IMG/VR virus record: IMGVR_UViG_3300032220_001761
Location: 129,134-190,674 of that record
From: a virus
Taxonomy: Duplodnaviria > Heunggongvirae > Uroviricota > Caudoviricetes
DNA length: 61,541 nucleotides
Reading direction: 5' to 3' (one strand)
Shown in pieces: positions 6,326 to 53,324 of this stretch. The notes below the pieces were generated by a model. That model saw only the letters and a program-made list of their open reading frames with translations. It was not told the DNA's origin and ran no database searches. A program made the position numbers and the translations under genes. Position 1 is the first letter of the stretch. Every line of letters starts with the position of its first letter.

Positions 6326-6711
6326 CAAGAGAAGAGCTTATAAAGATATTAGACGAGAAAGGTTATTCCCATAATATGGATAAGAAGGATAACTTGGTTC
6401 TGGACGATTACAAAAATGTTGTTCTGGATGAGGTCGACTCTATACCTTCTGATGTGGTGTTTAGAAATAGAGGGAATGTTTGGCTTGATTCTATGACTGT
6501 TATTTCTCCAAGGGGTTATTTTGAGAATAATGGTAATGTTATTCTTGATTCAGTAAAGAGCATACCACCGGGAGTAGCATTTAACAATACTGGAAGAGTT
6601 CATTTAAAATCCTTAATTGGAGGGCCTATTGATGGGTGGAGTGGTAATATAGAAGGGATCAATCATAAGCATCTATTGAATCTCATGATTAAAAAAGGGC
6701 TATTCGAATGA
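6322..6711 (+). CDS. third paralog of the 20-aa-repeat family
   Basis: MTREELIKILDEKGYS start; SIPSDVVFRN and SIPPGVAFNN repeats; ATGA overlap. Confidence 0.8.
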   Translation: MTREELIKILDEKGYSHNMDKKDNLVLDDYKNVVLDEVDSIPSDVVFRNRGNVWLDSMTVISPRGYFENNGNVILDSVKSIPPGVAFNNTGRVHLKSLIGGPIDGWSGNIEGINHKHLLNLMIKKGLFE

Positions 6712-7133
6712 GAGATGAAATTTTGGATCTAGGACTATTTGAAATAATGCCTAATACTATTAAGGCAGAGTATTATAGTGACCTAAAAAAAGAGATAGAG
6801 AAATTGGGAGAGGGATGGGAAATGTCGGTGTATGCTATTTCTAAGTACCTAATGTCAATGTCTAAGGAATTGAAGATAAAAGAACACATCATTGGGAAAT
6901 ATGGCTACGAATTCATCTCTCAGATAGAGGTCATCATCGATAACGATTATGGGGGTAAGCCCTTAATTATAGAGGATGATGAGGACATTAAGAAATTTAT
7001 GGATGAAGATGAAAAGGAAGATGCTATAGGCTGGGATCAGAATGGGAATGATTATGAAGTTAGCAGATTTAGTTCTAATGTTCTTCACTATGAAATAGAA
7101 AAAGGGATATACTTCATATACAGAAAGAAATGA
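6708..7133 (+). CDS. hypothetical protein, possibly a diverged DUF1566-like protein
   Basis: ATGA overlap; LGLFEI...EKLGEGW resembles the 11037..12127 family. Confidence 0.65.
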   Translation: MRDEILDLGLFEIMPNTIKAEYYSDLKKEIEKLGEGWEMSVYAISKYLMSMSKELKIKEHIIGKYGYEFISQIEVIIDNDYGGKPLIIEDDEDIKKFMDEDEKEDAIGWDQNGNDYEVSRFSSNVLHYEIEKGIYFIYRKK

Positions 7134-7673: not shown

Positions 7674-8765
7674 ATGGGGCACTTAAAATTATTCGAAGAA
7701 TTTGTTAATCTGAGGAGATCTGCTTGGGACATAAGTGAATCCACCGATCCACAGAGTAGATTTGAAATTATAGATGCAATTAAGAATACCGATGCGGGTA
7801 AGCTTTTACAGAGAATTTTAAAAGTGAAGCCTGAAGGGAGTGGAACTTACCTAGATTTTGATAAAGTGTTTACTCCTGTTAAAACAGGAAGGGTTTACAT
7901 TGGTGCAGGGTATGGAGGAAAAACTAGGATTTATAAAAACTATGGAACGTGGTGGCAGGAGAGTGAAGCTTCTGGCAATATTTATAACTCTGGAAAATCT
8001 GATACACTAGAGGGGATTATTAAATATTGTGTCATCAGATATGTTGAAACTAGTCTAGAGAGAGGTATTGATAAAAAGGATATAGTGGAATGGATGAAAA
8101 ATAATTGGAGTCTTCTTTACACCCTATCGTCAGTCCAGGAGATCCTTGCTGAATACAAGATGAGTAAAGGAATGGATACTATGATTATGGATGCTTCTGT
8201 TATACCTACTCTTAGTAACTATAAGAATTTTAAGGACCTCCTTAAGTTTAACCCTGAGATTTATCCTAATAACATTAGACTTCATTTTGACATTGATCCT
8301 TTTAATCTAGGATTTGATAAAAAAAGATACACTCATTTTGTTATTAATTTCAAGCTAACCAATAAAAACAAGTATTCTGCTACCAAGGGTAACTATGGTG
8401 ATTTTGTAATAACAATTGGTGCTTCTAGTATGGAGGATCTAAATGATAAATTCCTAAAAGGACTTAAATACGGAGTCAATAAATATTATGATGCGATAGA
8501 TCCTAACGGGGATAATCCAGATTCACAGGTTTCTAGAAAAATAGTAATGTCTCTCCTTGGAGACAAAAAGAATGATCCTGATTTTACGTACAACTATTTC
8601 ATAAAACTTCATTCAGAAGAGCCCATGATTTTTTCTAAAGCATTTAATATTCTAAAAACTGTAGATCCTGTGGTTTCAGATTTAATCTCTAAAGAAATAG
8701 GTGAAAAGGATATTGATGATCTAAGAAAAGGCTCATCTTTATTAGGTAAGTTTGGAATAGAGTAA
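7674..8765 (+). CDS. putative virion-internal protein (N- and C-terminal motifs)
   Basis: MGHLKLFEEFV start; KGSSLLGKFGIE end; AATATATA at 7660. Confidence 0.7.
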   Translation: MGHLKLFEEFVNLRRSAWDISESTDPQSRFEIIDAIKNTDAGKLLQRILKVKPEGSGTYLDFDKVFTPVKTGRVYIGAGYGGKTRIYKNYGTWWQESEASGNIYNSGKSDTLEGIIKYCVIRYVETSLERGIDKKDIVEWMKNNWSLLYTLSSVQEILAEYKMSKGMDTMIMDASVIPTLSNYKNFKDLLKFNPEIYPNNIRLHFDIDPFNLGFDKKRYTHFVINFKLTNKNKYSATKGNYGDFVITIGASSMEDLNDKFLKGLKYGVNKYYDAIDPNGDNPDSQVSRKIVMSLLGDKKNDPDFTYNYFIKLHSEEPMIFSKAFNILKTVDPVVSDLISKEIGEKDIDDLRKGSSLLGKFGIE

Positions 8766-8774
8766 ATCTCTAAC

Positions 8775-8879
8775 CTCTACAGGTAATGATCGTTTTAGCT
8801 AGTCCTTTTTCAAAGACCTTGGTTTGATCATCACACATCATTTTACTATTCAGTGCGTTTATCATCTCGCCACCTGACT
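8775..8879 (-). ncRNA. degenerate or truncated tRNA-like element (5' half only)
   Basis: AGTCAGGTGGCG identical to the 5' end of the 9250..9446 element; D-arm GCG..CGC; GTGATGATC/GATCATTAC stem; no matching 3' acceptor strand. Confidence 0.45.
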
Positions 8880-8977
8880 ATTTTACCACATTTATGGCAT
8901 TTAAAATGGGTCATTCCTAGAAACCATCCAATGCGATTTTCGTGATTACAAAATAATTGTTTTAGCCAATTTTTCAT
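8846..8977 (-). CDS. small putative Zn-binding protein (CxH...CxxC), 43 aa
   Basis: Hand translation MKNWLKQLFCNHENRIGWFLGMTHFKCHKCGKIVRWRDDKRTE; below the ORF-track cutoff. Confidence 0.6.
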   Translation of the reverse strand: MKNWLKQLFCNHENRIGWFLGMTHFKCHKCGKIVRWRDDKRTE

Positions 8978-8980
8978 AAC

Positions 8981-9235
8981 TTATTTATTATCTTCTAGCA
9001 TCCTCCAAAACAAAGAAGCCTCGCTAAGTAATATCCATATTGCCATATCGGTGTACCCGTTATCAGTTACATCAGTTTGTCGAAATGCTTTATGAAACCA
9101 ATATCCAGTGGGATCTTCTTCAATCAAACCAGTAATATGTTTCTCGTTTGCTTTTAATAAGTTCCACAAAGCACGTTCTTTATCGAATTCTTTTGTTATC
9201 TTATCTTATTTTTCTAACAATTCAGTTGTTGTCAT
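8981..9235 (-). pseudogene. small ORF with an in-frame TAA at codon 10
   Basis: ATG at 9235 gives MTTTELLEK*DKITKEFDKERALWNLL..., in frame with track ORF 8981..9169. Confidence 0.55.
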
Positions 9236-9249
9236 ATTTTATTTTATAG

Positions 9250-9446
9250 TAGCCAGGACAGGATTCGAACCTATATGAGATGAGGAGTCAACTTAACTAT
9301 CTCCTACGTTTCCCTCGCACATTTCTACGGACTCTTCTGAGTCGGGCATCTCTAGCCTAGATAACTTAGCGTCTACCGTTTAATTGGCTGGGGATTGTCT
9401 CCCCTACAGCGTCGATCTCAGCACCAATTAATTCCGCCACCTGACT
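9250..9446 (-). ncRNA. tRNA-like RNA (Leu-type D-arm and canonical T-arm) with two large structured insertions, no clear anticodon
   Basis: Acceptor AGTCAGG/CCTGGCT; T-arm ATAGG-TTCGAAT-CCTGT; D-arm GCG-GAA..GGTAGA-CGC split by a 52-nt hairpin; GAGATG/CATCTC-closed multibranch; no encoded CCA. Confidence 0.7.
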
Positions 9447-9455
9447 AAGATCTTT

Positions 9456-9797
9456 TTATAGACCTTTGAATACATTAAACACTTCCGAGATAGGAGTAGC
9501 GTTATTGAATACGTGGATCGTATCACCGTTCATAGTACGATCTCTCAATTCGATACTGATTGTCGAGTGATTGTAGTACATCGCGTATCTGTTTTTAGAA
9601 GAATGGAACCATAGGATATTCCCCATTCCACCGTCTTTTACAGACTTAACTTCGATGTCGCCTTCTGATTTCCAGATGACTGCTCCCATTAGGGCAAGAC
9701 AAATTTCTTGGACTCCTTGAGCGTGATGATCTGCACGGTCTAATACACCGTTGAAGTAATCTTTCAGCAATTCAGCTGAGGTCATTGTTACTGCCAT
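9456..9797 (-). CDS. integron cassette protein VCH_CASS14-like
   Basis: GVLDRADHHAQGVQEICLALMGAVIW, YAMYYNH and IHVFNNATP match the recalled family pattern. Confidence 0.75.
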   Translation of the reverse strand: MAVTMTSAELLKDYFNGVLDRADHHAQGVQEICLALMGAVIWKSEGDIEVKSVKDGGMGNILWFHSSKNRYAMYYNHSTISIELRDRTMNGDTIHVFNNATPISEVFNVFKGL

Positions 9798-9893
9798 AGA
9801 TTTTATTTTTTATTAATATACTAAACCAAATATAAGAATTCAAATCAAGATAAAAAAATATTTCTATAGAAAAATCCATAAAAAAATGTTTTC

Positions 9894-10490
9894 TTAAACT
9901 TTTTTCAAAATATTGTAAATGGTAGCTGTTGAGCATTCGTATATCCTGGAGATCTCCGTTACACTTACTCCCCACTTTTTCATCTTAGCTATACGCTTCA
10001 TGTTTTTCTTATCCCATGCTTTACTCCTGAGACTATCATAATACCCAACCTTTTCGTTATGGGCTTTTAGAGTGAGAGCATTCTCTGGATACCTCTCAAG
10101 ATTTGTTTTAGAATTCTGTGAAGCTGTTATCCATTTAAGATTTGATGCTCTATTATCCTCATAGTTATTATTGATATGAGTTACGTAGATGTGTTCGGGA
10201 CTTGGTCTTTTAATAAATGCCTCAGCTACGAGTTTGTGCACATAGGCAGTTTTGTTTTGACTTGAGATCTCATCAGAATAAAGAGAGACAAATAAATGTG
10301 GATATTTTCCTCTTCGGGATTTAACTATCCTAGGAGATTTCCTGTAGGTGTATCGGTTGTTGTTACCACCCCTAGTAACCAATCTTCCTTTGGTCCTTAA
10401 TCTTCCTAAATTACTAACTTCGTAATAATCTTTGAAATCTGGATGATTTACATCTTTCCATATTTCTTCTGGTTGCTTTCTATTGAGCAT
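9894..10490 (-). CDS. NUMOD4-HNH homing endonuclease with C-terminal HTH
   Basis: EEIWKDV..YEVSNLGR (NUMOD4); VHKLVAEAFI..VTHINNNYEDNRASNLKW (HNH); start placed at ATG 10490 downstream of the promoter motif. Confidence 0.85.
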   Translation of the reverse strand: MLNRKQPEEIWKDVNHPDFKDYYEVSNLGRLRTKGRLVTRGGNNNRYTYRKSPRIVKSRRGKYPHLFVSLYSDEISSQNKTAYVHKLVAEAFIKRPSPEHIYVTHINNNYEDNRASNLKWITASQNSKTNLERYPENALTLKAHNEKVGYYDSLRSKAWDKKNMKRIAKMKKWGVSVTEISRIYECSTATIYNILKKV

Positions 10491-18260: not shown

Positions 18261-19328
18261 TTAATTTTCATCTCCCTTATACCAAAAAGGCTTCTGATAA
18301 ACTGGTCTGATATTCTTCCAGATGATCTCGGAATAATCCTTACCGTCCAGCATACAGAATATTATAGCCTTATTCATAGAAGTTTGGGTATTTAAGATCT
18401 CCGCTATTTCTTTTCTTGATAGATCCTTTCCTGTAATATTCCCCTCGAGAATTTCTTTAGCTCTGTCTTCTCTTACCTTGAACTTGATCTTAAGATCCTC
18501 AATTGTATTTCTAACCCAGCTATCAAATTCATCTGGCACTTTTTCTAGCATAAGGTTAAGATCCTTGCCCAACATAAGGCTTTCCCAAATATCAACATTA
18601 GAGAAGTTGGTTAGAAGTCTATGCAATCTGACATACTCTTCTCCTTTAATTTTCATCCTCTGTCCAGATTCGAATTTAATCACAAACCCTTCTTGGTCTT
18701 CTTTGATTATCTTTTTCAGATCCCTGTAGTCTTCTATTCCGTCATAAACCTTAACCACTAGATCTGGATGATACCAGGAATCTACCATCCATGTATGGTG
18801 ATATTCAATTCTATGATCCATCATTGCAAGGAGAACTAATTTCTCCTCGTCTCCATAATCACAGACTATTCTGTTTTCTGGATAGATGATTTCACAAAGA
18901 TAGAAATTGTGTACGTTTAGATTGGACCCATATTTCTCTTCCTGCTTTTTTAGTATCTCCATACCTCTCTTAGCCTGGTCTGAAGTAAATGAACCACGTG
19001 TTGCTAAGATCCATTCATCAGAATAATAAAATAATATTCCCAATGATCCATCCATCTTTTCGAAAACATCAAAAGGTTCATTGGGAATATTATCCATCTC
19101 CTCCATATTGAAGAATTTAGGAAACCCCCTAGCAATTACATTTCCAGATTGGTCTAGTATGGTACCTCTCATGTTGAGAGTTATGTTATCCCACTTAGAT
19201 TCAAATTGGCAATCTCTTGTGTAATTGTAAATAGAGATAGGATGAACCGGGTGATCGTTTTTTTCGACCAACCCGGAATCAATATATTCTTGTAATACGT
19301 TTAAATCATACTTTAAGGTCTTTTCCAT
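18261..19328 (-). CDS. rnlA: T4 Rnl1-type RNA ligase
   Basis: RGFPKFFN, EKMDGSLG (motif I), EIIYPENRIV, EGFVI, KIKGEEY. Confidence 0.9.
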   Translation of the reverse strand: MEKTLKYDLNVLQEYIDSGLVEKNDHPVHPISIYNYTRDCQFESKWDNITLNMRGTILDQSGNVIARGFPKFFNMEEMDNIPNEPFDVFEKMDGSLGILFYYSDEWILATRGSFTSDQAKRGMEILKKQEEKYGSNLNVHNFYLCEIIYPENRIVCDYGDEEKLVLLAMMDHRIEYHHTWMVDSWYHPDLVVKVYDGIEDYRDLKKIIKEDQEGFVIKFESGQRMKIKGEEYVRLHRLLTNFSNVDIWESLMLGKDLNLMLEKVPDEFDSWVRNTIEDLKIKFKVREDRAKEILEGNITGKDLSRKEIAEILNTQTSMNKAIIFCMLDGKDYSEIIWKNIRPVYQKPFWYKGDEN

Positions 19329-23962: not shown

Positions 23963-24446
23963 TGGTGGACCATGTGGGATTCGAACCCACGTCTTGCTCA
24001 ATAAGTTAAATGCGCTCATTCACAGGCTTAGATCCGGTTTATCAGACTCCGGTCAAACTGTGTAGCTATCTTTTTTTGGACTGGCTTTAGCTTCAGCCAG
24101 CGAACCTACACTATCAGCGCTCCTTGGATTTCTCCGTGGACTGTTGCCTTTCGACTCAGGGGCTCTGGTGGTTTTCTATTGTGAGGTACTGTAGCCCCTT
24201 TTTCCCTCGGTTTTCAAATTTCTGTTCCTAGGTAATTGAGACCCGGTGGTTAAGCTGCTAATAGCATCTCTACCTCATCCATCACTGAAGCATTAGCTAC
24301 AGATCCAGATTCCATGATGTTCATCACATCAAGGACATTATAAACGTTGCCGTTTGTGATTTTAATAGGGGATTTAAGTGTTTCCATCTAACACTGCCTG
24401 TATCACGTCAAAGAACTTTCATTGCCAATCAATTCCGATATGGCCC
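23963..24446 (-). ncRNA. ssrA: tmRNA (transfer-messenger RNA), 484 nt
   Basis: 5' GGGCCAT pairs with 3' ATGGTCC-ACCA with G3:U; T-arm GTGGG-TTCGAAT-CCCAC; internal tag ORF ending LLAA-stop. Confidence 0.9.
24250..24351 (-). other. tmRNA proteolysis tag ORF (A)GNVYNVLDVMNIMESGSVANASVMDEVEMLLAA*
   Basis: Hand translation; GGC resume codon inferred from its position about 95 nt into the RNA after an A-rich stretch. Confidence 0.75.
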
Positions 24447-25229: not shown

Positions 25230-25619
25230 TTAGAGCTTAAATTCAAAACGGTCCCTCATTATTTCTATGGTGTTCTCTGGAACCCCGTGGGTATTTTTAC
25301 CCCCGTGGTGATTTTCCACGATAGCTACGAAGATTTTGTACCCTAGTTCCTTCCCAAGAAGAATGTATGGTTCCATCTCCCACTCACGGGTAAAAGTGTT
25401 AGAAACAACTACAATTGGTTCTCCATCTTTCATAGCATCCATCACTTTATGTCTACACCAATTGTGCGCATCACTCAATTTAGACCCATCAAATTTGTAT
25501 TCGCTATTTTCGTCCATAAAAAACATGTCTGCTTCGTAATGAACCCCACCTAGGGACTTAGCAAATGTGGACTTACCACTTCCTGGTAATCCCCTAACTA
25601 TATAGAATTTTTTTTCCAT
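25230..25619 (-). CDS. P-loop kinase (AAA_33, polynucleotide kinase-like)
   Basis: RGLPGSGKST, EADMFF, VSNTF, NTHGVP. Confidence 0.85.
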   Translation of the reverse strand: MEKKFYIVRGLPGSGKSTFAKSLGGVHYEADMFFMDENSEYKFDGSKLSDAHNWCRHKVMDAMKDGEPIVVVSNTFTREWEMEPYILLGKELGYKIFVAIVENHHGGKNTHGVPENTIEIMRDRFEFKL

Positions 25620-33967: not shown

Positions 33968-35137
33968 TTAAAAAAGAGCTCTTACTAATAGAAGGTTAGG
34001 GGAAAGAGGGGCATAGCCCATTGCTTCAATAAATCGATTTATCGGATCAAGAATAACACGATTGAATTGTTCATCAAAATCTACAGGCGGAGCATACTCA
34101 TAAGGATAAGATCCATTAAGATATCCAAAAACATTATTTTCTGCTTCGCTTTTAGTTTTTACGTAGTAGAATTTAATCTTCTCCGAAGATCTAATCAAGC
34201 TGTATTTTGCTTTGTATTTGGAATTGTTTAGAACGTAATTGTGATATCCTGCTGCTCTAACGTGCATTGGACAGCCTTTAGCAACTTCAAATTTATTGGT
34301 ATCGTTTACTATGAATTTTTCAAGGTTGTTTACTGATGTTCCTATAGCAATCTGATCCGGATTCTGTATCTTAAATTCATTTTTAATCTCCTTTAAGATC
34401 TTTACGAACTCTCTTATATCAAAACTCTTACCTTTTTCGAAAATGTGCCTTAAAAGGAACGTAAGCTTCTCTCTTGCAAATGGTGCAGTACCTCCTTGAG
34501 CTAATTCTATACCTGTTGATTTAATTTTAGAGAGTCTAGGAAATAAGTCCTTGTTAGGATCTTGCCATGCTATGTGCAATACGTATTTTTTCTTACCTAA
34601 GAATACACCTGCATAAGATAGACTCTCTAGCTCAAAATCTTGGTAGTTTTTAGTATTCCATTTTTCAGAGTAGATGTCATAACACTTCTTAATATAATCC
34701 TTGAGTCTATACTCATTTAATCTTTTTACGAATTCAAAATGATCATAATCAAATTCACATGAATCCATAACTGCACCAAGATTGATGTAGTTAGAATCTG
34801 TGTCACCGTAAATGATAAAATCTAGGTTTAGCTTCCGTACGTTTCTAACCTCCATTTTTTCATGCACCTCTGTGTCTAAGTGCCACATCTCATTGAAATA
34901 TCGGTTAACTATCTTTTCAGCAAACTTCCAGATATCTTGACCCTGTAATGTTACGCTTTCTGCAACATCTGGGTTGAATAAAGCAAAGTATTGATTTCCA
35001 GTCGCTCCGTATATACTGTTAAGAGTTAACTTAATACCTTGCTCTGTATTATAGAAATCAGAAGATTTTTTTTGCATCTCTAGAAGCTTCTGATTAAGCT
35101 CATCTAGAGACATTGACATGTAATCTATTTCTTCCAT
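33968..35137 (-). CDS. family B DNA polymerase, C-terminal subunit (gp43B-like)
   Basis: KLTLNSIYG (motif B), YGDTDS (motif C), KKKY. Confidence 0.9.
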   Translation of the reverse strand: MEEIDYMSMSLDELNQKLLEMQKKSSDFYNTEQGIKLTLNSIYGATGNQYFALFNPDVAESVTLQGQDIWKFAEKIVNRYFNEMWHLDTEVHEKMEVRNVRKLNLDFIIYGDTDSNYINLGAVMDSCEFDYDHFEFVKRLNEYRLKDYIKKCYDIYSEKWNTKNYQDFELESLSYAGVFLGKKKYVLHIAWQDPNKDLFPRLSKIKSTGIELAQGGTAPFAREKLTFLLRHIFEKGKSFDIREFVKILKEIKNEFKIQNPDQIAIGTSVNNLEKFIVNDTNKFEVAKGCPMHVRAAGYHNYVLNNSKYKAKYSLIRSSEKIKFYYVKTKSEAENNVFGYLNGSYPYEYAPPVDFDEQFNRVILDPINRFIEAMGYAPLSPNLLLVRALF

Positions 35138-51917: not shown

Positions 51918-53324
51918 TTATGATTTTGATTTTATTGCTTTTTTAATTTTTTCAATTTCCTTTTCACATTCAAAGTATTTTTTCTTTGTAGCTTTTCTCT
52001 GAGAATAAAGGTCTTGTAGAATCTCTCTCAACATTGGCTCCTTTCCTTCTTTACTGTAGAATACTGCACCCGATGAAGTTTTAATAGCTCCTTCTGGTAT
52101 TTCCTTTAAATTTTTACCAATATAAATTTCTGGTGAAATCCCCCATTGCATCATGGTATTAGGATATAGAGAAGCAAAGTCAAAACATGCTATCCATTCG
52201 TATAATCCTTTCTCAGGCTTCTTAACATAAGCACCTTCGAATTTAACATGTGTCTCTTCTTTTCTCTCACTTATAATAACTCTTTTTCGGTCTAAGAATT
52301 TCTTTAACATAAGTACCTCAGTGGTCCAAACAGGCGAAAGGGCTCTGTTAATCTCCACTCCACTTACTTCTGCGATCTTAAAAAATGTAGATATTGTATC
52401 AAGTCTTTGGTCTATGTAATGAACCAGACCACAGTCAATAGCATTATAGAAAATAAAAGTGTCGAAGTCAGATTCATATAAATCCTTCAGTGTTCCTTGG
52501 TAATGTATTTTCTTTATACCTATCGCCTGATTTGCAACATAATCCAAAGAATTGGATTCTCTGATTTTAATAACCCTGTCCCATTTCTTATAGATGTCCA
52601 GATAATCGACCATAAGAATGTGCATAGGTATTTGATTTTTCCCTAGAAGAGTTCCACTAGGAGAAGCTATCTTCGGATCTATACCAAGTCTTTTACATCT
52701 GTTGATTATATAAGGCCAGTCATATCCAAACCAGTTCCATCCAGTGACTAAAGGCATCTTATGGATCAATTTAGCCAGAAATGTGTAAAGCATATCAAAT
52801 TCGCTTTCAAATTTTCTGTAATTAAAAGTCCATTCGCCCTTCTGTCCCTTAAAGTGCTCTTTTATTCTCTTCTCAATTTTTAAGATCCTTTCAGAATCCA
52901 TATCCTCTAATCCTATAACAAGTATTTTTCCTTGCGAGGATGCCATACCTATTGAGAGGATTCTATTCTTAGCGTTTTCTGTATCTAAAGAATCCGCTCT
53001 ATTATCCGTGATCTCAACCTCTATATCGACGAAATATTTTTTAGGAGTTTGATATTCCCAAAGGGGACTGGTTATTTCTTTGTCAAAAGATGCCAGAATC
53101 TCAGTAACTCTGTATCGATCTAATTTATAAGTCTGAACTTTTTTAATTGGAGCTCCGTCCCACGAAAGCCATTCCTTGTCTCTTGATTTATCAGAAGCTG
53201 TGGTTTTTTGCCACACGAATTGCTGAGATTTAGGAACTTGTAATTTAAGATAATCTACATCACCATCTTTTGTATAATGAGAAACGATTAAATTAGATCC
53301 TGCGGTTTCTATATCAATTATCAT
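51918..53324 (-). CDS. family B DNA polymerase, N-terminal subunit (3'-5' exonuclease plus motif A; gp43A-like)
   Basis: DIE (ExoI), GWNWFGYD (ExoII), YNAID (ExoIII), FDFASLYP (motif A); ends in the fingers helix. Confidence 0.92.
   Translation of the reverse strand: MIIDIETAGSNLIVSHYTKDGDVDYLKLQVPKSQQFVWQKTTASDKSRDKEWLSWDGAPIKKVQTYKLDRYRVTEILASFDKEITSPLWEYQTPKKYFVDIEVEITDNRADSLDTENAKNRILSIGMASSQGKILVIGLEDMDSERILKIEKRIKEHFKGQKGEWTFNYRKFESEFDMLYTFLAKLIHKMPLVTGWNWFGYDWPYIINRCKRLGIDPKIASPSGTLLGKNQIPMHILMVDYLDIYKKWDRVIKIRESNSLDYVANQAIGIKKIHYQGTLKDLYESDFDTFIFYNAIDCGLVHYIDQRLDTISTFFKIAEVSGVEINRALSPVWTTEVLMLKKFLDRKRVIISERKEETHVKFEGAYVKKPEKGLYEWIACFDFASLYPNTMMQWGISPEIYIGKNLKEIPEGAIKTSSGAVFYSKEGKEPMLREILQDLYSQRKATKKKYFECEKEIEKIKKAIKSKS

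Follow-up and report, generated by a model that had tools for sequence, protein, structure and literature searches.

A gene encoding a 197-nt, anticodon-less RNA shaped like a leucine tRNA (tRNA-Leu) was identified on the minus strand at 9446..9250 of the window, the whole 61,541-nt stretch of freshwater phage DNA that was analysed. The element, whose length includes the discriminator A at 9250, is best explained, with about even confidence, as a non-decoding RNA gene that keeps the acceptor, D and T arms of tRNA-Leu and most likely serves as a tRNA-shaped carrier. It is recognized from its sequence, from a full-length match to a covariance model and from RNA contigs. The family to which it belongs is very large and combines a constant scaffold with a hypervariable middle; its members are likely to be stable carriers or decoys and not decoders.

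Structure of the element

The original prediction described an intact acceptor stem, T arm and D stem at 9250..9446, and all three are present, on the minus strand. The acceptor stem consists of the 5' strand AGUCAGG (9440..9446) and the 3' strand CCUGGCU (9251..9257), which pair in the folds. The G at 9253, which produces one U-G pair, is a minority base; most relatives have A at this position, and T at 9253 (A in the RNA) was found in 28, 13, 11 and 36 contigs of the DNA runs. The D arm (9369..9437) is of the bacterial tRNA-Leu type, with a stem GCG...CGC (9437-9435 paired with 9371-9369) and a loop GAAUU[insert]AAACGGUAGA that includes A14, A15 and G18G19. The T arm (9258..9274) reads AUAGG-UUCGAAU-CCUGU and is directly preceded by U at position 48. 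The tRNA features of the element are a 7-bp acceptor stem, a D arm and a T arm with a UUCRANY loop.

Two inserts are carried by this body. A 52-nt hairpin (9380..9431) lies in the D loop between U17 and G18, and folding recovers it as originally described, with 9 bp formed by UUAAUUGGU/GCCAAUUAA and an inner GGGGA/UCCCC hairpin. The second insert is a 94-nt branched "cargo" (9275..9368) that replaces the anticodon and variable arms and contains the helices GACUC/GAGUC, CGUA/UGCG and AGGAG/CUCCU. The multibranch domain proposed for this region was recovered in part: GACUC/GAGUC and AGGAG/CUCCU were found in the free fold and in the scaffold-constrained fold alike, whereas GAGAUG/CAUCUC was found in the free minimum-energy fold only.

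The folding z-score of the whole molecule is just -0.67, so that the fold draws its support from comparison and not from energy. Covariance modelling, proposed with the original prediction as a check, was carried out with a model (R1) built from 48 relatives with the window left out. R1 recovers the element from end to end (model positions 1-106 of 106; 45.3 bits, E 9.6e-9), compared with at most 29.5 and 25.2 bits for the ordinary tRNAs of phages T5 and T4. The window carries the family signature of acceptor AGUCAGG/CCUGRCU, T arm NNAGG-UUCGAAU-CCUGU, A73 and C74, with AUAGG in place of ACAGG. The family D arm, GGCGGAAU(U)GGUAGACGC, is kept as well, though the 52-nt hairpin interrupts it between U17 and G18.

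No hairpin with a 5-bp anticodon stem and a 7-nt loop (U33, R37) occurs after the D arm, past position 26. ARAGORN reported no tRNA genes in the window, and the tRNA model RF00005 did not match the element at its gathering score or at E values up to 10. No Rfam family matched the element, including the group I intron family RF00028.

The family of tRNA-Leu-shaped RNAs

About 1500 IMG/VR stretches contain the 3' 21-mer that spans the T loop and the acceptor 3' strand, in many cases with several copies per contig and with up to 7 in 3.5 kb. Among 185,579 prokaryote genomes it occurs in just 20 stretches, all from metagenome-assembled genomes (MAGs). This near-absence led to the rejection of a host tRNA mimic, as did the real tRNA-Leu(UAA) in a multi-copy contig, which has another acceptor stem. 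The 7-mer AGUCAGG lies upstream of 142 of the 164 family 3' motifs, and a D stem is present in 131 of the 164 members (44 in shuffles). The D stem covaries across the family, with GCG/CGC in 83 members, GUG/CAC in 8 and GCA/UGC and GCU/AGC in 3 each, and the acceptor variants GAGAUAG/CUAUCUC and UGUAAGG/CCUUACA occur in co-located relatives. A73 is present in 129/139 members and C74 in 136/139, and A14, A15, G18G19 and U48 are each conserved in at least 90% of the family.

The claim that the element is not a decoding tRNA is supported by the family as a whole. Pairing of an anticodon stem at the canonical position was at chance level (6/76 elements against 5.8 expected), as were anticodon-like hairpins anywhere in the middles (5/164 against 6.5 +/- 2.2). 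A hidden anticodon arm was likewise rejected, given this chance level across the family and the lack in the syntenic relatives L005 and L007 of any counterpart to a GUUAAGU loop seen in the window. ARAGORN calls a tRNA in 30 of 143 members; the anticodons it assigns are scattered, and some are 2 or 4 nt long. Shorter members score 31-50 bits on RF00005 (cut-off 29 bits). Knowing what these RNAs do would improve annotation, since tRNA finders miss such genes or assign them spurious anticodons.

Ordinary tRNAs are present in the fetched flanks of 35 of 136 loci, and all 85 of them are co-oriented with the element; many family members lie within pure tRNA arrays in which there are no ORFs to separate. 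A blastn search of the L007 element against 50,697 cultured-phage records yielded no full member and only partial matches to ordinary tRNAs, and the window region had no match in these records. The sole match to the pattern GGTGGCGGAATTAATTGG was a coding sequence in L002/L003. A literature search that did not extend to paywalled articles on the T4 and T5 RNAs found no paper describing the family. VIPR guide RNAs, which are GGYNN tandem units, are unrelated to it, and the skipping-rope, DUF2693-FD and salivarius-1 RNAs are also different RNAs.

Variable middles and signs of selection

Unrelated middles occupy the same genomic position in the window, L004, L005 and L007, and in syntenic relatives the scaffold is shared but the middles, of 120-140 nt, are unrelated. 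Family middles have a median length of about 100 nt, and no relationship is seen among 140 of the 164. This hypervariability need not mean that middles are swapped or diversified, because neutral DNA would be unalignable in any case at the 77-84% identity of the neighbouring protein. No conserved motif was found in the family middles; additional hairpins resembling a T arm were seen in 3 of 164, against 0.26 expected, a number too small to carry weight. The middles fold slightly better than shuffles (mean z -0.66, with 9% below -2, in 148 elements). Such weakly folded, unrelated middles also fit unconstrained filler.

The 52-nt D-loop hairpin is lineage-specific. It is missing from L005 and L007 and from a variant of about 90% identity in the DNA runs X4 and X9, and its 22-mer core has no other occurrence in IMG/VR. 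These comparisons show the hairpin to be a recent gain in the lineage.

Two compensatory changes were found in the 94-nt insert, A105-U116 to G-C in an RNA run (X20, record 13) and C118-G131 to U-A in a DNA run (X4, record 15). A single contig has no changes over 9279-9446 (168 nt) beside 4 synonymous changes at 76 third positions in the neighbouring gene (p ~0.009). These compensatory changes and missing substitutions, which come from a few metagenomic contigs, point to selection on the inserts. A role as an antisense regulator of the phage's own genes was rejected, as the longest complementarity of the element to the rest of the phage genome is 11 nt, which is the chance level.

Presence in RNA libraries

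Freshwater metatranscriptome contigs of 178, 184 and 182 nt from three studies match the element without differences at 9259-9436, 9256-9439 and 9254-9433, respectively, and contigs from a fourth metatranscriptome study cover 9279-9455. The RNA contigs retain both inserts and show no splice joint, although contigs do not reveal RNA ends and rare spliced forms could escape them. One RNA contig (X20, record 15) extends 9 nt past the 5' end of the element. No RNA contigs were seen over either flanking gene, whereas the DNA runs do cover the flanks; contigs being no proof of absence, this gap is a weak hint even when taken together with the DNA control. The places where the contigs stop likewise give a weak hint of a discrete stable RNA. 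Splicing to an ordinary tRNA, or an element neither transcribed nor conserved, had been named beforehand as outcomes that would count against the original prediction; instead, the element belongs to a conserved family, occurs in RNA libraries and keeps both inserts in the RNA contigs.

Neighbouring genes and the remnant at 8879

The gene upstream of the element (9456..9797, minus strand) encodes a 113-aa protein of the VCH_CASS14 family (PF18315, E 4e-26) and ends 9 nt ahead of the RNA gene. L005 and L007/L008 share this synteny, with a family element 9-13 nt behind the homologue. The next downstream start lies about 14 nt beyond the element on the same strand. No promoter- or terminator-like sites were found between the element and its neighbours, the site count of the region being 7 against 7.8 in shuffles. 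A 62-aa ORF downstream (8981..9169, minus strand) matches just the C-terminal half of DUF7238 / phrog_1451. Recoding of the in-frame TAA (codon 10) upstream of this ORF was rejected; the coding density under table 11 is 90%, and reading the TAA as X added no homology to DUF7238 or phrog_1451. The next ORF (8846..8977, minus strand) encodes a 43-aa CxxC...CxxC protein (phrog_4188).

A second copy had been described at 8879, with the same start, a different interior and no 3' strand. A 12-mer is indeed common to the two sites (8879-8868 in the second) and has no other copy in the 190,674-base genome, and the T arm is absent. The copy (8778..8879, minus strand) scores only 19.6 bits on R1 (E 0.014) and retains the 5' acceptor strand, a D-arm-like GGCG-AGAUGAUAAA-CGC and a trace of the 3' strand. 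Its 5' half is identical to the family consensus at 21 of 25 positions, counted by eye. RNA runs cover only 8868-8889, with contigs of other family members. The copy at 8879 is a decayed remnant and no second working element. Each copy had also been said to follow a small ORF. The intact element follows the 113-aa gene and precedes the 62-aa ORF; the remnant sits inside the 43-aa ORF, which overlaps its 5' half, and the 5' part of the remnant now encodes the C-terminus of that ORF.

Proposed function and alternatives

The element is probably co-transcribed with the upstream gene, because the two are 9 nt apart and no promoter-like site lies between them. Cleavage by host RNase P and by the enzymes of tRNA 3'-end maturation would then release the RNA from the joint transcript, and its L-shaped top would make it stable. 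The review PMC9976931 gives A73, A15-U48 and G18G19 as the leucine determinants of E. coli, and the set, including the A15-U48 Levitt pair, is complete in the window sequence. The review also states that tRNA-Leu without its anticodon and variable arms is still charged. Since A73, A14, A15 with U48 and G18G19 are kept, as in the E. coli leucine identity set, the RNA is predicted to be chargeable by leucyl-tRNA synthetase (LeuRS) without codon reading. The 52-nt hairpin adjoins G18G19 and might interfere with the elbow and with recognition by LeuRS. The lineage-specific inserts may form the working surface, which would bind or titrate a factor of the host or of a rival phage.

A wider proposal, which is speculative and rather improbable as a whole, is that phages of freshwater and other habitats keep thousands of such predicted leucine-chargeable, anticodon-less shells as a modular display. 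Each shell would present a different selected insert and would be processed and stabilized by the host tRNA machinery. The shells would make up an RNA toolkit for counter-defence or host takeover that turns over by insertion and replacement, with the 52-nt hairpin as a step in progress.

An unlikely alternative to the carrier reading is that only the tRNA top matters, as a decoy or sponge for a host factor that recognizes tRNA bodies or 3' ends, with the middle as filler. Candidate targets include a defence enzyme that modifies acceptor ends or cleaves tRNAs, LeuRS, RNase P and EF-Tu. Conservation across the family is limited to the scaffold, nearly all middles are unrelated (140/164 distinct) and weakly structured, and up to 7 copies per contig suit a dosage effect. 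The phage also encodes an Rnl1-like RNA ligase and a Pnk-like kinase, a tRNA repair pair of the T4 type, which makes a tRNA-directed attack by the host plausibly relevant to it. The compensatory changes and the absence of substitutions beside 4 synonymous ones, however, speak for selection on the inserts, and deletion-prone phage genomes should shrink filler, whereas the middles have a median length of about 100 nt and 52 nt were recently added in this lineage. The functions offered in the original prediction, namely an RNase P/Z signal, a decoy for anticodon nucleases, a scaffold releasing small RNAs and a cassette recombination site, are at best candidates, and the anticodon-nuclease decoy is unlikely, since no anticodon loop is retained in the family. 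Compensatory change within the inserts counts against a decaying or intron-bearing tRNA-Leu, that is, an insertion-riddled pseudogene or a tRNA-Leu(UAA) with removable inserts. This reading can point to the Leu-type D arm and to the GUUAAGU loop (RNA positions 150-156) on a stem with 4 of 5 bp (RNA positions 145-161), identified by eye. Some family members, L091, L105 and L141 among them, resemble plausible tRNA-Leu(UAA), and the copy at 8879 shows that members decay. It is nevertheless highly improbable, as the scaffold is intact over about 1500 stretches and anticodon hairpins are at chance across the family. An intron-bearing tRNA was rejected, there being no match to group I introns or any other Rfam family and no joint in the RNA contigs, which retain the inserts.

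Two further readings place the function outside the RNA itself. The element might act in cis as punctuation: RNase P and RNase Z would cleave the polycistronic transcript at the element, separating the VCH_CASS14-like gene from the downstream small ORFs and setting mRNA ends and half-lives, with the RNA as a by-product. In favour of this, the element is squeezed between genes on its own strand, with gaps of 9 nt on the upstream side and about 14 nt to the next start and no promoter- or terminator-like site between, and L005 and L007 conserve its position. The reading has a low probability, since many members lie in tRNA arrays with no ORFs to separate, a minihelix would suffice without the Leu-type D arm, A73 and selected inserts, and the RNA libraries hold RNA of the element but not the neighbouring mRNAs. 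Still less probable is a role at the DNA level, in which the conserved halves would be homology arms or nuclease targets for cassette exchange or preferential inheritance, as with the homing endonucleases in T4 tRNA clusters. The gene content of relatives diverges right at the element, and contigs in three DNA runs join ~8883-8885 to ~9232-9249 and thereby omit the two-ORF segment of about 350 bp that separates the element from the remnant, although this is weak, the sides of the joints measuring only 28-35 nt. A gene for an HNH/NUMOD4 endonuclease is found 450 nt upstream of the element, and T4 segB lies within the T4 tRNA cluster. Covariation in the D stem and the acceptor variants, however, reflects selection on RNA pairing and not on DNA sequence, the RNA is found in RNA libraries, and the 85 neighbouring tRNAs all share the element's strand. 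Of these readings, a tRNA-shaped carrier remains the preferred one.

Related RNAs in known systems

That phage tRNA clusters encode "stable RNAs of unknown function", among them T4 species 1 and T5 RNA1 and RNA2, has been known for about 50 years. The present family indicates that tRNA-like phage RNAs are no oddity of two model phages; they form a very large family, unmatched in Rfam 15, with a strictly conserved leucine-tRNA top and an ever-changing middle, and this member at least is found in natural RNA samples. In the engineered "tRNA scaffold" used for RNA expression in E. coli, and in the tRNA-like leader elements of murine gammaherpesvirus 68, a tRNA body processes or stabilizes an attached RNA; the former is man-made and the latter eukaryotic, and in both the role of the cargo is known. 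If the inserts are the working part, the engineered scaffold would have a counterpart in nature, and the family would represent a new class of effector RNA in phages. If the top alone matters, its members would be tRNA decoys against host tRNA-directed systems. Either answer would fill a long-standing blank in phage genome maps.

Bacterial class II tRNA-Leu (RF00005) shares with the window element the acceptor, D and T arms, A73, A14, A15-U48 and G18G19; the element differs in its lack of an anticodon arm, its length of 197 nt and its 52-nt D-loop insert. The tmRNA (RF00023) has a similar top of acceptor and T arm, no anticodon and a large non-tRNA interior, but it has no true D stem, and its alanine identity (G3-U70), its pseudoknots and its tag reading frame set it apart. 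RF00023 gave no match at 8600-9700, and a tmRNA-like gene of the same phage lies at 23963-24446.

T5 RNA1 and RNA2 (NC_005859, 30501-30644 and 32959-33083) are annotated as "tRNA-like stable RNA with unknown functions" and lie in a phage tRNA cluster with homing endonuclease genes nearby. RNA1 resembles the window element in its acceptor-like stem, Leu-type D arm CCGGAAUUGGUAGACGG, T arm GAAGG-UUCAACU-CCUUC and middle of about 80 nt without an anticodon arm, and RNA2 in its 3' end GCAGG-UUCGAAU-CCUGU. Both differ in their acceptor sequences and have no D-loop hairpin. Their likeness to the element is one of architecture; homology in sequence and structure is weak, RNA1 scoring 17.4 bits and RNA2 24.2 bits on R1, below ordinary T5 and T4 tRNAs. 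The T4 species 1 RNA (rnaC, NC_000866, 70908-71046) and species 2 RNA (rnaD) are small stable RNAs at the end of the phage tRNA cluster. The rnaC RNA ends in a canonical T arm, CCGGG-UUCGAAU-CCCGG, and has an acceptor-like closing stem around a large structured interior (z -4.6), but it has no Leu-type D arm and its acceptor pairing is imperfect (19.3 bits on R1). It occurs as one copy per genome and not as a hypervariable multi-copy family.

An unannotated element in the Bacillus phage SPP1 (NC_004166, 6647-6756) scores 29.0 bits on R1 (E 5.7e-5). Its D arm GGCGGAAUAGGUAGACGC all but equals the family consensus, and it has a 7-bp acceptor stem AACACGG/CCGUGUU and a 54-nt middle without an anticodon arm. 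It differs from the family in its atypical T loop UGCAAAU, its 6-bp T stem and the U instead of A that follows the acceptor. SPP1 is cultured and genetically tractable and, together with T5, offers a laboratory system for RNAs of this kind. The SPP1 element lies between head genes and outside any tRNA array, and a doubtful minus-strand "gene 10" is annotated over it.

Structure of the element

The element (window 9446 to 9250, minus strand by sequence reading) is a conserved, transcribed and unspliced tRNA-like RNA that has no anticodon arm and carries lineage-specific inserts. Its acceptor stem consists of AGUCAGG and CCUGGCU, including one U-G pair, and U8 and G9 follow the 5' strand directly. 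The D stem is GCG/CGC in sequence and fold, and the D loop (GAAUU...AAACGGUAGA) is that of a bacterial tRNA-Leu D arm (GGCGGAAUUGGUAGACGC) split between U17 and G18. The T arm (AUAGG-UUCGAAU-CCUGU) has a U just before it, and the discriminator base, A, precedes a C. The 52-nt hairpin that the original prediction had placed in the D loop was confirmed by sequence and folds at 9431-9380 (minus); it is closed by 9 bp (UUAAUUGGU/GCCAAUUAA) and encloses a GGGGA/UCCCC hairpin. The D arm and T arm are separated by a 94-nt middle domain (9368-9275, minus). Two of the helices proposed for it, GACUC/GAGUC and AGGAG/CUCCU, are common to the free and scaffold-constrained folds, as is CGUA/UGCG, whereas the third proposed helix, GAGAUG/CAUCUC, appears in the free MFE only. 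The tRNA-like constrained fold (-54.3) carries a penalty of just 1.7 kcal/mol relative to the MFE (-56.0), and the folding energy of the element is unremarkable (z -0.67).

Size and spread of the family

The upstream gene (113 aa; PF18315, E 4e-26) ends 9 nt before the element, and five viral contigs (L004-L008) encode homologues with 77-84% identity. In L005 and L007/L008 the same acceptor, D arm and T arm lie 9-13 nt after the homologue, in elements of 120-125 nt that have no D-loop insert and whose middles are unrelated to one another and to that of the window. L004 contains a family element further downstream with another D-loop insert, and L006 stops too early for its presence to be judged. 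A 21-mer spanning the T loop and the 3' acceptor strand (GGTTCGAATCCTGTCCTGRCT) was detected in at least 136 stretches in 6 of the 64 parts of IMG/VR, from which about 1500 stretches are estimated for the whole database; multi-copy contigs contain up to 7 copies per 3.5 kb. AGTCAGG occurs within 400 nt upstream of the 21-mer in 142 of 164 distinct occurrences, and the family elements measure 53 to 360 nt (median ~100). Among 185,579 prokaryotes (one genome per species) the 21-mer was present in just 20 stretches, all MAG contigs and mostly labelled Bacteroidota, and it is therefore regarded as phage sequence and not as a host tRNA. No complete family member was found by blastn in 50,697 cultured-phage records. 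The T-arm and acceptor segment common to the family (window 9233-9273) reached a summed contig depth of 107-1337 in four DNA metagenomes from freshwater, compared with 3-8 on the flanks, and as many as 36 different contigs covered it in a single run; it follows that these waters contain very many family members.

The covariance model R1, derived from 48 members other than the element of the window, specifies three scaffold helices and nothing else. R1 matched the element over its full length (45.3 bits, E 9.6e-9), and ordinary T4 and T5 tRNAs scored at most 29.5 bits. No further intact copy was found with R1 in the rest of the phage genome.

Scaffold conservation and absence of an anticodon arm

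The D stem, which was not required by the search, is present in 131 of the 164 members compared with 44 in shuffles, and it covaries (GCG/CGC, 83; GUG/CAC, 8; GCA/UGC, 3; GCU/AGC, 3; others). In the alignment of 48 sequences, conservation reaches 90% or more at each of A14, A15, G18G19 and the U preceding the T stem; 129 of 139 members have A73, and the next base is C in 136 of 139. Co-located relatives are built in the same way around different acceptor pairs (GAGAUAG/CUAUCUC, UGUAAGG/CCUUACA and UGACAGG/CCUGUCA); their acceptor pairing was a search criterion, and only their D arms are independent evidence.

At the canonical anticodon-stem position, at least four of five pairs were formed in 6 of 76 parsable members versus 5.8 in shuffles, and anticodon-like hairpins anywhere in the middle were seen in 5 of 164 members (6.5 +/- 2.2 expected). 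ARAGORN called 30 of 143 members, with anticodons scattered over many amino acids and including 2- and 4-nt "anticodons". On the element itself both programs were silent: ARAGORN reported zero tRNA in the window, and Rfam gave no match at gathering score across the window; in 8600-9700, relaxing the threshold to E 10 yielded no tRNA-like hit. The prediction that this is not a decoding tRNA is thus supported. Shorter members score 31-50 bits on the Rfam tRNA model, above the cut-off, so automatic annotation would label them tRNAs. Ordinary tRNA genes are present in the fetched flanks at 35 of 136 loci, all 85 of them on the strand of the element, and one contig contains 7 elements interleaved with tRNA-Leu, Gln, Glu, Ser, Ile and Lys genes.

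The middles are highly diverse: 140 of 164 share no 8-mer cluster with one another, no enriched motif was found in the middles of the 164 members, and folding is slightly better than in shuffles (mean z -0.66, 148 elements). The middle of the L007 (2881-2927) and L016 elements (AAGGUUAAC...GUAACCUYGAAAUACCC) resembles intergenic sequence in nine cultured Cellulophaga phage records (79% over 47 nt, E 0.4). The counterpart in phage phi10:1 (KC821618 3010-3057; L171 401-448) has no tRNA scaffold visible around the match, and some inserts may therefore be free-standing RNA modules. In another phage, an IMG/VR contig end (L018) carries three family elements beside a group I intron match (58-286, minus; RF00028, 97.8 bits) and a tmRNA (281-642, minus; RF00023, 49.2 bits, above the cut-off).

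Relation to known phage RNAs

Phage tRNA-like stable RNAs have long been known and are unexplained. RNA1 and RNA2 of T5 are annotated in the T5 record as "tRNA-like stable RNA with unknown functions", and RNA1 has an architecture like that of the element, with a Leu-type D arm, a T arm and a middle of ~80 nt. T4 rnaC (species 1 RNA) has a canonical T arm, an acceptor-like stem at its end and a strongly structured interior. These RNAs share architecture with the element, but common descent is not supported because they score 17.4-24.2 bits on R1, lower than ordinary tRNAs. SPP1 contains an unannotated element (6647-6756, plus) with the D arm of the family and no anticodon arm (R1 29.0 bits, E 5.7e-5). 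It is overlapped on the opposite strand by 'gene 10' (NC_004166 6525-6734, minus), for which the record itself flags a conflict with the conceptual translation; this ORF is possibly an annotation error.

Rfam 15 lacks a family of this kind, and no description of it was found in searches of the literature other than the older subscription-journal papers on the T4 and T5 RNAs. The excerpted text of a survey of structured RNAs in IMG/VR refers to "tRNA-like" candidates that it does not specify, and the supplementary tables of that survey might list family members (PMC10690425). The element is real and adds a new member to a large, undescribed family, itself a variant of the long-known phage tRNA-like stable RNAs; the details that are new are its gain of the D-loop hairpin and its occurrence in natural RNA samples.

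Expression

Contigs of four metatranscriptome runs, each from a different study, were compared with 8700-9900. RNA contigs of 178, 184 and 182 nt correspond to 9259-9436, 9256-9439 and 9254-9433 with zero differences, and RNA of the fourth study covers 9279-9372 and 9343-9455. In further RNA contigs, 70-135 nt separate the 5' part of the scaffold from the 3' part, and other family members are therefore represented too. No bin of the flanking genes had RNA cover in the four runs, a weak hint given that only contigs were compared; the sole covered flank stretch (8868-8889, 22 nt) derives from contigs of other family members. In the DNA control, four DNA runs cover the flanks, and in run X2 the depth is 6-8 over 8905-9232 and 9479-9888, with contigs bridging both ends of the element. 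Contigs cannot reveal RNA ends; one RNA contig extends 9 nt beyond the 5' end of the element.

Age and constraint of the inserts

The D-loop hairpin is, judged from contig comparison, a recent gain. DNA contigs of runs X4 and X9 are ~90% identical over 9249-9374 and after 9374 read TCCATTCCGCCACCTGACT, which leads straight into GGAAUGGA and the acceptor strand with the hairpin missing. The 22-mer core of the hairpin has no other occurrence in IMG/VR. In the middle domain, two pairs formed in both free and constrained folds show compensatory changes: A105-U116 to G-C (9342 T>C with 9331 A>G; RNA run X20, record 13) and C118-G131 to U-A (9329 G>A with 9316 C>T; DNA run X4, record 15). The listed differences of the X4 variant, read by eye, shorten the GACUC/GAGUC hairpin and keep the pairing as GAC/GUC. 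In a near-identical X2 contig (record 5, 9279-9682), all four differences are synonymous third positions of the upstream gene and none falls in 168 nt of the element (p ~0.009 under equal rates).

Probable decayed copy

AGTCAGGTGGCG has its sole other occurrence in the genome at 8879-8868, where it is followed by GGCG-AGAUGAUAAA-CGC; by a by-eye count 21 of 25 positions agree with the consensus 5' half, and G18 is lost. The region 8879-8778 scores 19.6 bits on R1 (E 0.014), has no T arm and retains a 3' strand reduced to CCUG--UA. The first portion of the region is also coding sequence, for the C-terminal end of a 43-aa CxxC...CxxC ORF (phrog_4188). The second copy that had been proposed here is real in its shared start, which lies within this ORF, and we read the region as a whole as a decayed family member without a T arm.

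Possible roles

It is an even call whether the element is a carrier with cargo. It would be co-transcribed with the upstream gene. RNase P, together with the tRNA 3'-end pathway, would then cut it out; the strand, the arrays and the N73-C trailer are common to the family and real tRNAs. As given in the excerpted text of PMC9976931, the E. coli leucine determinants are A73, A15-U48 and G18G19, the anticodon and long variable arm are non-determinants, and tRNA-Leu without anticodon and variable arms is still charged. The conserved positions of the family coincide with this identity set as described there and charging tolerates the loss of both arms, so the shell is a predicted LeuRS substrate. 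A decoy formed by the tRNA-like body by itself is a considerably weaker candidate. The phage encodes an Rnl1/Pnk pair, and attack on tRNAs is therefore plausibly relevant to it; the strict anticodon-nuclease decoy of the original prediction is unlikely because no anticodon loop is kept, and the RNA could be a decoy for factors reading the tRNA top or 3' end. To judge from a small number of observations on metagenomic contigs, selection acts on the inserts in addition to the scaffold. In the carrier-with-cargo reading these constrained inserts would form the working surface.

Punctuation of the message in cis is improbable. In favour of punctuation, the element lies 9 nt after one gene and ~14 nt before the next frame, and no promoter-like or terminator-like sites were found between it and its neighbours, site counts of the region being at shuffle level. 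Still less is expected of a DNA-level role in recombination or homing. An HNH/NUMOD4 endonuclease gene is located 450 nt upstream, and DNA contigs of three runs join ~8883-8885 to ~9232-9249, omitting ~350 bp with two small ORFs, a hint that the segment between element and remnant may be an indel, with sides of just 28-35 nt in a repetitive scaffold; the sequence of the element is present, unspliced, in RNA libraries of several studies, in which its neighbours were not assembled. A pseudogene or intron-bearing tRNA is the least credible explanation. Members L091, L105 and L141 look like plausible tRNA-Leu(UAA) and may be a trace of the ancestral state; in the RNA contigs both inserts are present with zero joints reported, and splicing to an ordinary tRNA is not seen.

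Genome and neighbouring genes

The window is the final 61.5 kb of a 190,674-base IMG/VR virus record with an estimated completeness of 68%, and its DNA occurs in freshwater, lake and river metagenomes. The coding density is 90% under table 11, which argues against global recoding. The gene set is that of a large T4-like phage, with a split family-B DNA polymerase, topoisomerase II and ribonucleotide reductase, and several HNH endonucleases, an Rnl1-like RNA ligase (18261-19328, minus; phrog_562, E 1e-58) and a Pnk-like ATPase/kinase (25230-25619, minus; phrog_2071, phrog_505) are also encoded. The latter two genes are the T4-type repair pair for nuclease-cut tRNAs.

Downstream of the element, a 62-aa ORF is reached via a short frame starting ~14 nt after it (ATG at 9235, TAA as codon 10; 9208-9235, minus). 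The ORF matches the C-terminal half of DUF7238/phrog_1451 only, no homology is gained by reading the TAA through, and it is probably a truncated gene.

A tmRNA-like gene (23963-24446, minus) aligns in full length with RF00023 (41.4 bits, gathering score 47; E 8.5e-15) and was not called by ARAGORN. Its 3' end (...GGUUCGAAUCCCACAUGGUCCACCA) is followed by a terminator hairpin, and its open frame ends in ...EMLLAA*, a typical tag ending. An odd tRNA-like gene of the same genome, outside the window (C1:77528-77608, plus; L001 1501-1581), scores 25.1 bits on RF00005 (cut-off 29); its D stem has 5 bp and its anticodon loop 9 nt (CCUCUAAAA), and the loop would present CUA if closed by a C-A pair. 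The polymerase genes (33968-35137 and 51918-53324, both minus) lie ~17 kb apart and match phrog_262 positions 498-839 and 86-497, respectively. Several HNH endonuclease genes are located near them, two of which match halves of phrog_1314.
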